A DNA stretch of 64,000 bases, from NCBI GenBank assembly GCA_001000675.1, contig LCHW01000001.1, positions 289,424 through 353,423 of the forward strand, written 5' to 3'. Source of the stretch: Candidatus Wolfebacteria bacterium GW2011_GWE2_44_13 (GTDB taxonomy: Bacteria > Patescibacteriota > Minisyncoccia > UBA6257 > UBA9933). The notes below the pieces were generated by a model. It was given only the letters and a program-made list of their open reading frames with translations, was not told where the DNA came from and searched no databases. Below are positions 34,287 through 59,374 of the stretch, piece after piece (the stretch's first letter is position 1; every line of letters starts with the position of its first letter). A program made the position numbers and the translations under genes.

Positions 34287-35009
34287 GTGCATAGGTTCAT
34301 TTTTATGCGTACTGATAAACAAAAAGCATTTGCATTGCGATTGAGCGGAAAGAGTTATAGGGATATTTCGGCCACATTGCATATTCCAAAATCGACTTTG
34401 TCGAGCTGGTTTTCGAACGTGCAACTTTCAGAAGACGTGAGAAATAAAATAAACGAAAAGGGTAGGAAAAAGTCGATACAGCTGCTTCTGGAAAGAAATA
34501 AGAAGCAAACTGAGCTTGCCGCAAAAAGAAATTACAAAATAAGAAAAGAGTCTTCTGAAGAAATTAGGGATATTTCTTCAGAAAATCTTTTACTTATAGG
34601 AGTTGCGCTGTATTGGGCCGAAGGCCATAAAAAAATGCTTGTAAGAAATGGGCAGGAGGTTACAAGCCATCCTGTTAGTCTGACAAATTCCGATCCAGTA
34701 TTAGTAAAAGTTTTTCTTAGGTTTATTCGAGAAATATGTAACGTTGATGAAGATAGAATAAAGGCGAGTGTTCGTATGTTTGACCATCAAAATGAACAGC
34801 ATGTTTCTGATTATTGGCGCGGGGTCACGGGGATAAAAAAAGAAAATTTTTGTAAAACATATACAGGGATAAGCAAATCAAGCCAAGGAAAGCGTCCATA
34901 TAATCGATTGCCGTATGGTACGATTCAAATAAGAGTTTCGGATACGAAGTTATTTCATCGAATTATTGGACTAATAGAGGGATTGAAAAAAAAATGTAGT
35001 TATGTATAA
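34287..35009 (+). CDS. HTH plus LAGLIDADG-like homing-endonuclease-family protein (freestanding)
   Basis: N-terminal HTH (SYRDISATLHIPKSTLSSWF). A single LAGLIDADG-like motif (LLLIGVALYWAEGHK) followed by the typical helix (DPVLVKVFLRFIREI). Lies immediately upstream of an intron-containing tRNA. Confidence 0.5.
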   Translation: MHRFIFMRTDKQKAFALRLSGKSYRDISATLHIPKSTLSSWFSNVQLSEDVRNKINEKGRKKSIQLLLERNKKQTELAAKRNYKIRKESSEEIRDISSENLLLIGVALYWAEGHKKMLVRNGQEVTSHPVSLTNSDPVLVKVFLRFIREICNVDEDRIKASVRMFDHQNEQHVSDYWRGVTGIKKENFCKTYTGISKSSQGKRPYNRLPYGTIQIRVSDTKLFHRIIGLIEGLKKKCSYV

Positions 35010-35036
35010 TGCATACATACCGTAAATAGGTATGTG

Positions 35037-35345
35037 GCCGCGGTAGCTCAGCGGTAGAGCGTAGCCCTGAATCTTCGGGGCCTTCTATAGTAATGTAGAT
35101 TGAATAACTGGGTGAATTCGGGGAAGGCTGTTGTGAAAGCAACGGATAATCCCGAGCCGAGCTCCATTGGGTTCGCCATCGGCGAAGTGGTGGAGAAGGT
35201 GTAGAGACTAGCGAGTGAGTCCCAACAATAATCTTGCAATAGCGCCCGGCTCCGTACCTTGCTTTTAGCAAGGCGGAGGTGAGATAGTCCAAATTAGCCT
35301 TGGAAGAGGCTAGCGTCGGGGGTTCAACTCCCTCCCGCGGCACCA
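35037..35345 (+). tRNA. tRNA-Phe (anticodon GAA) interrupted by a group I intron between positions 33 and 34
   Basis: Exons: GCCGCGG-UA-GCUC-AGCGGUA-GAGC-G-UAGCC-CU | GAAGA-GGCUA-GCGUC-GGGGG-UUCAACU-CCCUC-CCGCGGC-A-CCA. After splicing the anticodon loop is CUGAAGA; G37 is atypical for Phe. The D-arm and variable loop closely resemble bacterial tRNA-Phe. Confidence 0.75.
35069..35302 (+). ncRNA. group I self-splicing intron (234 nt, no ORF)
   Basis: P1: exon GCCCU pairs with internal guide GGGGC, with a U·G wobble at the splice site. P10: guide CUUC pairs with 3' exon GAAG. R-like (GUAGAGACUAG) and S-like (GAGAUAGUCC) core elements are present. The intron ends in G. Confidence 0.7.
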
Positions 35346-35358: not shown

Positions 35359-35545
35359 TTAACATAAAAAACAGTCTTGTGAGGAGGCTGTTTTTTATGT
35401 TAAGGAGGGCGCTTGGTGTCGTGGAGTGGGCAAACTGCTTTGCCCACGTGGGGAGTTTAAGACCGCAGCGATATACGTTCAGTAGGACGTATCGCGAGGG
35501 GCGGCCTGCGAGCTTGCTGAGCGACGGCGAAGCAAGACTTGTAGG

Positions 35546-35579
35546 CAACTCCCTCCCGCGGCACCAATATGGGATTTGA
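35546..35579 (+). repeat. 34-bp direct repeat, copy 2 (att-like partial duplicate of tRNA-Phe 3' end)
   Basis: Perfect copy ~190 bp downstream. The flanking terminator-like hairpins are also similar (cttgtgaggagg...). Confidence 0.6.
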
Positions 35580-35703
35580 AAAACTAGAAATGACCCTTGT
35601 GAGGAGGGTCATTTTTAGTTCCCGATATGCTTGACTTTTTAGTATGTTTGGGGCGAAGATGAAGACAGCTACATTTAATTCTGAAAAGAGAAGGAGTTAG
35701 GGC

Positions 35704-36351
35704 ATGAAGAGGAATCGTCTTATGGTTGAGGCTGCTGCAGTATTGCGAAGTGCTGCGAGTAAGGGGTTTTGCTGCGGCGAGATGTGCGAGCTTGAACGTC
35801 GGATGCGACATGCGTTTAGCGTGGCACTTTGCAATGGCATTGGGATTGTCCCTGAGCCCCTGCGAGAATATGCTGGTGGCGTATTACACACGGTGATTAC
35901 GCTGAACCAGGTGGGCGAAGAATCTGCGGTGGTTGGAGTCAGTATCACATGTTTTACGGATGGGGTGCTGACTACGCTTGATATTGACGCGGAAGAGAAC
36001 ATCATTTGTCGATATCAGGGTACGGGGAAGGTGTTCAAGTTTTTGTGGCATAACCCCACACAACTCATTGCAAAACCTCGAGATTTTTTTGGGGAAGGGT
36101 TTTTGTATGAGCCGAATCGGTTAGCGCTTTCTGCGGTGCACATGGGGACTGTCGCGTGTGTACGGGGAGCTGCGAATACTTCTTTCATGACGAGTGGCTT
36201 GTGCCTCGTTTCCGAGAGTCGTATCGAGGATATTCGCCACTATCCTGATCAGGGCAAGCTTGATTATGATCTCCGTGTTTTGTATGAAGAGATGACTTCG
36301 GGTGACGAAGAAGAGCGCGGACATGTGCTTTCCTTGCTCGCTTCTGCATAA
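35704..36351 (+). CDS. hypothetical protein (GC-richer orphan ORF)
   Basis: 215-aa ORF whose composition is visibly more GC-rich than its neighbours. Lies between the duplicated tRNA-Phe 3' repeat and tRNA-His. A terminator follows at 36358-36392. Confidence 0.4.
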   Translation: MKRNRLMVEAAAVLRSAASKGFCCGEMCELERRMRHAFSVALCNGIGIVPEPLREYAGGVLHTVITLNQVGEESAVVGVSITCFTDGVLTTLDIDAEENIICRYQGTGKVFKFLWHNPTQLIAKPRDFFGEGFLYEPNRLALSAVHMGTVACVRGAANTSFMTSGLCLVSESRIEDIRHYPDQGKLDYDLRVLYEEMTSGDEEERGHVLSLLASA

Positions 36352-58768: not shown

Positions 58769-59056
58769 ATGCATTACGTGTATATTATCAGGAGTGATAA
58801 AAATGGTAAGTTGTATAAAGGATCAACCTGTGATTTAAAAACGCGATTACGTGAACATAATAGCGGTGTGACGCAATCTACGAAGGCTTACGCTCCGTGG
58901 CGATTAGTGTATTATGCGGTATTTGCGGATAAGACAGACGCGTTGCGTGAGGAGTTGTTTTTAAAGAGTGGCAAAGGGAGAGAGCGTGTAAACTTTTTAC
59001 TTGCCAATACTCTTGTGAGATGCCAAAATACAAAGAATATTGGAGGGGTCGCATAG
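58769..59056 (+). CDS. GIY-YIG nuclease-superfamily protein
   Basis: MHYVYIIRSDKNGKLYKGSTCDLKTRLREHN carries the GIY-YIG catalytic motifs. 95 aa. The stop codon lies inside the first 15 nt of tRNA-Ser. Confidence 0.6.
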   Translation: MHYVYIIRSDKNGKLYKGSTCDLKTRLREHNSGVTQSTKAYAPWRLVYYAVFADKTDALREELFLKSGKGRERVNFLLANTLVRCQNTKNIGGVA

Positions 59057-59126
59057 TGGCCGATTGCGCTCGCTTGGAAAGCGGGTATACCGCAAGGTAT
59101 CAAGGGTTCGAATCCCTTCCCCTCCG
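59042..59126 (+). tRNA. tRNA-Ser (anticodon GGA), class II with long variable arm
   Basis: Acceptor GGAGGGG/CCCCUCC and discriminator G. Anticodon loop UUGGAAA. Variable-arm hairpin UAUACC-GCAA-GGUAUC. T-arm AAGGG-UUCGAAU-CCCUU. Confidence 0.8.
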
Positions 59127-59374
59127 CACATAGCAACATAAGCGCCTACTCTTTACGGGTAGGCGTTTATGTTGCTGCTATGAGTGGAGATAAAGAGGGA
59201 TTCGAAAACTACTTTTAAAAGCAAACTGCTTTGCTTTTAAAAGAGTCGGCGATGGAGGAGTTTCGAAGCTTGTTTCGAGTATTCGAGGAACGCTGAGTAA
59301 CGGGGGAAGAGGAATCCCTTCCCCTCCGCCATTTAGAATAGGTATTCCAATGAGATATTTGGCAAATTGATTCT

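Follow-up and report, generated by a model that had tools for sequence, protein, structure and literature searches.

A predicted ORF-less group I intron of IA-type architecture in the tRNA-Phe(GAA) gene of a Wolfebacteria chromosome, with a conserved flanking gene and a tRNA-like downstream element

[quoted passage not shown] The gene lies in a stretch of 64,000 nucleotides, here called the window, and all coordinates refer to positions in this stretch, with all features of the locus on the + strand. An intron of this kind has already been catalogued in the phylum in 2025-26, and the window copy adds a member; it is a well-supported Wolfebacteria example, with a covariation-backed structure, in a class that has only been tabulated so far. 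Two further components of the locus, a conserved gene beside tRNA-Phe and a structured element downstream of it (the X element), appear to be new.

The 5' exon (35037..35068) spans tRNA positions 1-33, comprising the acceptor strand, D arm, 5' strand of the anticodon stem, C32 and U33. It reads GCCGCGG-UA-GCUC-AGCGGUA-GAGC-G-UAGCC-CU, and its last residue is at 35068. The 3' exon (35303..35345) extends from G34 to A73 and includes the encoded CCA, reading GAAGA-GGCUA-GCGUC-GGGGG-UUCAACU-CCCUC-CCGCGGC-A-CCA from 35303; at the DNA level it opens with GAAGAGGCUA and closes with CCGCGGCACCA. The joined exons form a cloverleaf in which pairing reaches 100% and 12 pairs covary; these figures are biased by the selection filter. 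Features of bacterial tRNA-Phe, i.e. the cloverleaf, the GAA anticodon and A73, are present after splicing. A37 is the typical residue of bacterial tRNA-Phe, and G37 is found in its place. The first-pass annotation had predicted the spliced loop CUGAAGA with G37, which is correct, and had regarded G37 as an anomaly of the gene, which it is not: G37 occurs in all 21 intron-less and in 78 of the 86 intron-containing Patescibacteria tRNA-Phe genes, the other eight having A37. G37 is a trait of the lineage and no defect of the window gene. Both G37 and A38 also take part in the P10 pairing of the intron.

The insert (35069..35302) is 234 nt long and ends with G35302, at exactly the coordinates first given; its longest + strand ORF is 34 aa. 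Its structure begins with P1 (35064-68/35077-81), in which GCCCU of the 5' exon pairs with the internal guide GGGGC and places a U.G wobble at the splice site. P10 (35072-76/35303-07), proposed previously as CUUC with GAAG, is one pair longer and joins UCUUC to GAAGA over 5 bp. P2 (35084-89/35094-99) is closed by a GUAA loop, P3 (35108-14/35243-49) pairs CUGGGUG with CGCCCGG, P4 (35118-23/35150-55) pairs UCGGGG with UCCCGA, and P5 (35128-34/35139-45) carries a GAAA loop. They are accompanied by P6 (35156-58/35198-200), P6a (35162-68/35189-95) and P8 (35250-54/35274-78). The R-like and S-like elements recognised in the first reading do form P7 (35204+35206-10/35285-90), G35204 and GACUA pairing with UAGUCC across a bulged A. 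Between P7 and the 3' strand of P3 there is an extra hairpin, P7.1 (35211-15/35233-37; GCGAG with CUUGC). Extra helices (P7.1/P7.2) between P7 and P3' mark subgroup IA, and with its P7.1 hairpin the intron has IA-type architecture in its predicted structure. A further helix, between UAGCC at the intron 3' end and the 3' strand of the anticodon stem, was considered and set aside; it is 71.7% paired, poorly aligned and weakly supported.

In the covariance-model search suggested in the first-pass annotation, Rfam RF00028 (Intron_gpI) matches positions 35059-35312 significantly and over its full length (model positions 1-253 of 253), with 46.2 bits and an E-value of 1.7e-10 in 801 nt, which is still about 1e-8 when scaled to the whole window. 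In this match the P7.1 hairpin (35211-35237) shows up as 30 nt inserted into the Rfam consensus. The match came from a permissive scan, since the score falls 3.8 bits short of the curated gathering score of 50, and for this reason the intron is missed by a default Rfam scan at that cut-off. Homologues adjoining the same flanking gene score 48-83 bits, most of them above 50. The split tRNA-Phe is likewise missed by ARAGORN in its default run, and is called as tRNA-Phe(gaa) at 35037-35345 with the intron option. Default annotation therefore silently loses the probable sole tRNA-Phe of the organism.

About 100 homologous tRNA-Phe introns were recovered by two independent routes, one starting from the flanking protein and the other from the intron. 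Fifty intron-containing tRNA-Phe genes were aligned with MAFFT (alignment A2) and assessed for 62 pairs of the named structure (P1-P8, P7.1 and P10). The structure is 92.0% paired. Shuffling lowers this to 77.0%, with none of 500 shuffles as high as the real alignment, and a shift by one column leaves about 50%. Changes on both sides are seen in 36 of the 62 pairs, and the covariation score is 0.430 compared to 0.158 in shuffled alignments (again 0/500 reaching the observed value). Every pair covaries in P2, P6a, P7.1 and P8, as do three pairs in P3; in P7.1, double changes affect 5/5 pairs. Pairing amounts to 99.1% in P3, 99.7% in P4, 98.0% in P6, 98.7% in the invariant P7 and 85.2% in P8, which has five covarying pairs. 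The figure for P5 in the MAFFT alignment is lower, at 65.7%, which length variation of this helix probably explains. P10 is 97.6% paired in the 50 sequences and nearly invariant, so its pairing gives weak support; invariance leaves P7 and the greater part of P4 and P10 without covariation support.

In P1, tRNA position 30 and the guide (columns 30/53) form a CG pair in 28 and a GC pair in 22 of the 50 sequences, with no mispairs, which indicates that the guide tracks the anticodon stem of the tRNA. The splice-site U.G wobble, noted initially in the window copy, occurs in 50/50 aligned sequences. Likewise, the terminal G, another feature seen at the outset, is present in 86/86 parsed intron-containing tRNA-Phe genes, as is U-1; the introns of these genes measure 199-404 nt (median 224). 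Taken together, the full-length covariance-model match, the covariation and the homology to the published Patescibacteria tRNA-Phe 33/34 intron provide good support for the reading that a group I intron interrupts the anticodon loop of tRNA-Phe(GAA) after U33.

The window has a GC content of about 0.43, with most genes on the + strand, including rpoB, rpoC, PEP synthase and PAS histidine kinases. The presence of rpoB, rpoC, PEP synthase and histidine kinases assigns it to the chromosome; phage origin was rejected on these genes and on a megablast search against a phage collection, which gave no match. Proteins identical to those of the window belong to a Rifle groundwater population (ACD_81, GCA_000299275.1, GCA_003508115.1), and UniRef lists them under Candidatus Wolfeibacteriota, within Patescibacteria/CPR. 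The locus sequence is 100% identical across independent assemblies of this population, and these exact-match contigs carry no comparative signal. A predicted sigma-70-like promoter, TTGAAA-16-TATAAT with 11/12 consensus matches (34983..35010), ends 27 nt 5' of the tRNA and overlaps the 3' end of the ORF at 34305-35009. Downstream, a terminator-like hairpin followed by a T run (35359..35403) consists of an inverted repeat with 19-nt arms of 95% complementarity. A 215-aa ORF further downstream is an orphan; no homologues were found outside this population, making it useless for synteny.

The ORF upstream of the tRNA (34305..35009), which ends 27 nt from its 5' end, encodes a protein of 234 aa, a candidate free-standing homing endonuclease. 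It is predicted to have a resolvase/Tc3-type HTH at its N-terminus, followed by a long helix and then by a LAGLIDADG-like domain at the C-terminus. The family counts over 445 homologues, about 231 aa long and at 53-79% identity, spread over Wolfe-, Doudna-, Harrison-, Portnoy- and other Patescibacteria lineages. The family is unusually conserved and nearly always intact, a single in-frame stop having been seen, in locus L089. With Pfam, each of the 24 aligned members shows a weak HTH at its N-terminus; at E<=1 the HTH families alone match these 24, and the LAGLIDADG profile is absent. A PDB sequence search gave no match, and Foldseek comparison of the full-length model with the PDB gave nothing significant. 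In confident AlphaFold models, with a pLDDT of 86.5 over the whole protein and of 87.0 for the C-domain alone, the C-domain adopts the alpha-beta-beta-alpha-beta-beta-alpha fold of LAGLIDADG proteins. The motif LYWAEG(Y/H)K, LYWAEGHK in the window, closes the first helix of this domain. Its E106 is invariant in 24 sequences, and homologues at 31-38% identity still have the motif in the form (Y/F)W(A/G)EG. Membership in the LAGLIDADG group is thus supported by the modelled fold and the motif, not by sequence profiles.

To follow the association of this gene with tRNA-Phe, relatives of the protein were collected with one genome per GTDB species. The scan yielded 262 relatives; 80 of their loci were examined and four earlier ones (the window, L007, L008 and L010) were added. 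tRNA-Phe(GAA) adjoins the gene in 82/82 informative loci, the other two being cut by contig ends, and the distance between gene and tRNA is 0-216 nt where both ends lie within the contig. Gene and tRNA occur in three arrangements: on one strand with the gene first, on one strand with the tRNA first, or divergently. The intron is present in about 62 of the 82 loci and absent from 20, the latter having the more distant proteins (41-49% identity).

In the reverse direction, a metagenome scan with the intron core pattern gave 120 loci. The same intron family was found in tRNA-Phe (52 full-length), tRNA-Thr, tRNA-Asn and a few other tRNAs. The gene lies 15-533 nt away in 27 of the 35 (77%) informative intron-containing tRNA-Phe loci, with no trace of it in the other eight. 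Beside introns of tRNA-Thr, tRNA-Asn or other ARAGORN-called tRNAs in these loci it was never found; the apparent exception, L155, is a full-length match of the tRNA-Phe type which ARAGORN mislabels as tRNA-Pro. In loci L008 and L009, the intact intron-containing gene is followed after 10 nt by an orphan 3' half of tRNA-Phe, which spans positions 44-73 and belongs to a different allele type. This arrangement fits the trace that would be expected if an incoming cassette replaced the resident allele. Among the loci checked, such halves are clear as insertion footprints only in these two. Comparison of intron-less tRNA-Phe beside the gene with spliced exons revealed no clear immunity signature; differences are limited to the variable 31-39 pair and to positions 44-45, and look phylogenetic or imposed by P1.

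The linkage of gene and tRNA-Phe suggests that a free-standing homing endonuclease may act together with the ORF-less intron. Our tentative interpretation is that the protein of about 231 aa, with its HTH and LAGLIDADG-like domains, may be a homing endonuclease for the tRNA-Phe locus that co-mobilises the ORF-less intron, which in turn would protect the host allele. If true, a bacterial tRNA gene would be the site of collaborative (trans) homing. Against this interpretation stand the missing match to LAGLIDADG sequence profiles, the unusual conservation of a family that is almost always intact, and the 20 loci with the gene but no intron, whose tRNAs show no obvious immunity signature. These loci also contain the X element described below. 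Limited mobility of tRNA introns has been deduced from the fact that most of them lack internal endonuclease genes (PMC13011429); in the case of such homing, these "endonuclease-less" tRNA introns would be mobile after all, against the recent conclusion of limited horizontal transfer. The linkage would offer a concrete route for the spread of ORF-less tRNA introns in reduced genomes.

An alternative which we regard as possible, if somewhat doubtful, is that the flanking protein is a domesticated LAGLIDADG-fold regulator of the tRNA-Phe locus, similar to WhiA, and that its link to the intron reflects shared phylogeny only. The HTH domain, the unusual conservation of a nearly always intact family, and the position beside tRNA-Phe whether or not the intron is there all agree with such a role. 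However, the acidic residue of the motif is kept even at 31-38% identity, whereas WhiA is without catalytic residues. Three different arrangements of gene and tRNA also speak against a regulator, as does the frequency of the intron: about 75% of the loci that have the gene also have the intron, compared to 1 of 95 complete Patescibacteria genomes for the Phe intron (PMC13011429). The orphan tRNA-Phe 3' half that follows the cassette in L008 also speaks against a regulator.

It is very unlikely that the LAGLIDADG-like protein (34305-35009) is instead a maturase needed to fold or splice an intron that would not splice by itself. LAGLIDADG maturases, such as I-AniI and the bI3 maturase, serve some fungal mitochondrial group I introns, the C-domain has the predicted LAGLIDADG-like fold, and the gene is found beside the window intron as well as near the 27 intron-containing tRNA-Phe loci mentioned above. 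Against a maturase, eight of those 35 loci show no trace of the gene, the gene adjoins an intron-less tRNA-Phe in 20 loci, and it is never found beside the tRNA-Thr and tRNA-Asn introns of this family. Furthermore, the N-terminal HTH is of the DNA-binding type, and related Patescibacteria introns, those of tRNA-Asn/Asp, are reported to self-splice in vitro free of protein (PMC13011429).

From the sequence and structure described above we infer expression of the gene and catalysis by the intron as follows. tRNA-Phe would be transcribed from its own promoter (34983-35010). P1 would arise from pairing of the guide GGGGC with the last five residues of the 5' exon, G29-U33, three of them in the anticodon stem, the splice-site pair being U.G. 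With P7 as its binding site, an exogenous guanosine would attack after U33, and the 3' exon would be aligned by P10 (UCUUC with G34-A38). The terminal G35302 would then take the place of the exogenous G, and ligation of the exons would give tRNA-Phe with the anticodon loop CUGAAGA. Because the GAA anticodon has no U, U33 is the sole loop U usable as the splice-site U.

Each complete Patescibacteria genome in the supplement of the published survey has one tRNA-Phe gene, and in Doudnabacteria GCA_016699995.1 this single gene is the one with the intron (PMC13011429). By analogy with these genomes, the window tRNA-Phe is most probably the only one of the organism, in which case its splicing would be essential. 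It is highly improbable that the cell relies on another tRNA-Phe while the split gene decays as a pseudogene or its intron is an inactive relic: the Rfam score is slightly below the gathering threshold, but the window copy keeps every invariant column of the 50-sequence alignment, all helices are intact and the cloverleaf is perfect, promoter-like and terminator-like signals are both there, independent assemblies of the population are 100% identical, and the tRNA-Phe counts in complete genomes point the same way.

Downstream of the tRNA terminator-like hairpin lies the X element (35416..35566), tRNA-like and highly structured according to its predicted fold and its duplication of the tRNA-Phe 3' end. 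The region 35404-35570 folds at -92.5 kcal/mol (z -7.3). The last 21 nt of X (35546-35566) are an exact copy of tRNA-Phe from C56 to CCA, and the duplication runs on through 13 nt of trailer, to 35584. A second terminator-like hairpin, with compensatory changes, is located at 35582-35620. The 5' end of X, GUCGUGG, equals the 5' strand of the tRNA-Phe acceptor with two C-to-U changes, so that an acceptor-like stem can form. A 5' segment, GGGAAUCG, pairs with the duplicated T-loop/T-stem strand CGAUUCCC, and a conserved 9-bp hairpin with the loop context AACUGCUU has six covarying pairs of nine. Core strings are also shared among copies, e.g. GAGGGGCGGCC.

A covariance model built from six copies of X gave 18 matches in about 1.1 Mb of Patescibacteria DNA. 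In 16 of them a same-strand tRNA lies 19-78 nt upstream, including tRNAs for Phe, Arg, Gly, Ser, Thr and Val, and 11 cases have an exact block of 13-34 nt common to X and the 3' end of the upstream tRNA. The window itself holds a second, rearranged copy after tRNA-Ser (59206-59331). A search of the stretch from the tRNA terminator to X gave no sigma-70-like promoter, and two core patterns gave no match in IMG/VR. Assignment to a known Rfam family was rejected, as none was found in the window at E<=10, nor in eight loci at E<=1. Identity with tmRNA was also discarded: ARAGORN makes no tmRNA call, and no tag reading frame is consistent. X appears to belong to a family without earlier description. 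It is a candidate tRNA-like RNA gene, or else a candidate small element inserting at tRNA 3' ends, and in either case would represent a new family of structured RNA or small mobile elements.

Comparison with known introns places the window copy away from the reference point used in the first-pass annotation, the tRNA-Leu(UAA) intron of cyanobacteria and plastids (34/35), which is not its closest relative. The tRNA-Leu(UAA) intron belongs to subgroup IC3 and is without P7.1. According to the published survey, IC introns are the most abundant, plastid tRNA-Leu genes included, and make up 81% of all bacterial tRNA introns; none is listed there for Patescibacteria, where nearly all are IA (PMC13011429). 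The IA-type reading of the window intron agrees with this near-universal IA, and never IC, assignment.

The junction between U33 and G34, first thought to be unusual, is no such thing: 33/34 is the well-known, classical site of tRNA-fMet introns and is already tabulated for Phe in Patescibacteria (PMC13011429). The cyanobacterial tRNA-fMet(CAU) intron shares this site with the window intron, with U33 as the splice-site U, although it resides in a different tRNA. Some tRNA-fMet introns hold an internal PD-(D/E)XK endonuclease gene, while the window candidate lies outside the intron (PMC13011429). Patescibacteria tRNA-Asn/Asp introns come from the same phylum and have the same IA-type architecture, but differ in tRNA and site, and some of the Asn introns hold internal HNH endonuclease genes (PMC13011429). 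The 231-aa gene adjoins none of the Asn introns.

The intron most like that of the window is the Phe(GAA) 33/34 intron of Doudnabacteria GCA_016699995.1, found in Table 1 of Nakagawa et al. 2026 (mSystems; PMC13011429). The two have in common the tRNA, the site 33/34, the phylum and the lack of an ORF; in the paper the Doudnabacteria intron is a table entry only, without a structure or splicing test, and no mention of the flanking gene was found in the parts of the article consulted (PMC13011429). Core strings common to both introns are gaatcttcggg, gggtgaactcggggaa, caatcccgagcc, aaggtgtagagactag and atgatatagtccaa, and the P7.1 loop is the same. The Doudnabacteria intron is 211 nt long compared to 234 nt in the window, its P2, P5, P6 and P8 sequences differ, and its host belongs to a class other than that of Wolfebacteria.

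Known trans-homing endonucleases are of the HNH or Endo VII type. Known cases of trans homing concern phage protein-coding genes, whereas here the gene is a bacterial tRNA gene and the predicted fold is LAGLIDADG-like. In addition, 20 loci have the gene without the intron. In collaborative homing, as described for the cyanophage psbA intron and for T4 mobE with the I-TevIII intron (PMC3984707, PMC2790892), the endonuclease gene is outside and beside an ORF-less intron, as here, and the adjacency and co-occurrence that characterize such pairs are found in the Patescibacteria loci far above chance.

The conserved gene of about 231 codons that lies on the forward strand beside the tRNA-Phe gene in the window (34305-35009) encodes a protein combining an HTH with a LAGLIDADG-like fold. 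In Patescibacteria, this gene always adjoins tRNA-Phe(GAA), as was observed in the window, in loci L007-L090, gathered mainly through relatives of the same protein, and in 27 of the 120 metagenome loci L091-L210, collected by the intron core pattern. Three orientations of the gene with regard to tRNA-Phe were found, and the intron is either present or absent. In locus L089 (2501-3190), where the neighbouring tRNA-Phe lacks an intron, codon 183 of the gene is an in-frame stop, which may reflect either decay of this copy or a sequencing error.

The same intron family, recognized among L091-L210 by one core pattern, is also housed in tRNA-Thr (UGU, CGU and GGU) and tRNA-Asn(GUU), and single intron loci were labelled Tyr, Gln, Ile and Pro by ARAGORN. 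In the metagenome loci, the LAGLIDADG-like gene never adjoins the homologous introns of tRNA-Thr and tRNA-Asn. Many Asn and some Thr introns in this set are 540-655 nt long, and may contain ORFs. In addition, the intron mode of ARAGORN returned three putative tRNA calls with insertions of 65-117 nt on a single metagenome contig (L121, 1570-4224; Lys CUU, Thr GGU and Leu CAA). Such lengths are insufficient for a group I intron.

Alignment of 50 intron-containing tRNA-Phe genes shows two sequence classes of the P7.1 hairpin (columns 295-347), one with the loop GUGAGUCCCAACAAUAAUC, which includes the intron of the window, and the other characterized by GGGAGUAC...GGGA. The two classes, as distinguished by sequence, suggest two intron sub-lineages. 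A minority of intron-containing tRNA-Phe genes (8 of 86, e.g. L090, 2063-2433) has A37, giving the spliced loop CUGAAAA instead of CUGAAGA, thus indicating that P10 tolerates this change. At the 3' splice site of the intron in the window (35289-35312), the end of the intron (UAGCCUUG) is similar to the anticodon stem's 5' strand and can pair, across the splice site, with GGCUA of the 3' exon; throughout the family, this helix is only 72% paired.

Partial copies of tRNA-Phe were also disclosed. An orphan 3' half (positions 44-73) at L008 4643-4673, the same in L009, has the acceptor type CCGCGGC and is identical to the allele of another locus, L042; 10 nt upstream stands an intact intron-containing tRNA-Phe of a different allele type (GUCCGGC). 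Judged from these sequences, the orphan half looks like a trace of allele replacement. In L170, a partial copy of the 5' exon (469-493, model positions 1-25) precedes an intron-containing tRNA-Phe gene by 16 nt.

Downstream of the tRNA-Phe terminator, the X element (within 35404-35620, forward strand) forms a very stable structure (z -7.3). Its 3' end duplicates that of tRNA-Phe, from C56 to CCA plus trailer, and is followed by a second terminator-like hairpin. The 215-aa ORF between this element and tRNA-His (35704-36351, forward strand) has no match in Pfam or NCBIfam, and no homologue beyond its own single population among 5.8 billion protein clusters. The X family, absent from Rfam, comprises at least 18 copies, located 3' of various tRNA genes. 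A second, rearranged X-like element (59130-59331, forward strand; 16.9 bits with the covariance model built from six X copies) lies 3' of tRNA-Ser(GGA) (59042-59127). The AACUGCUU hairpin is present in this element, and its terminal GAATCCCTTCCCCTCCGC is a copy from the tRNA-Ser 3' end.
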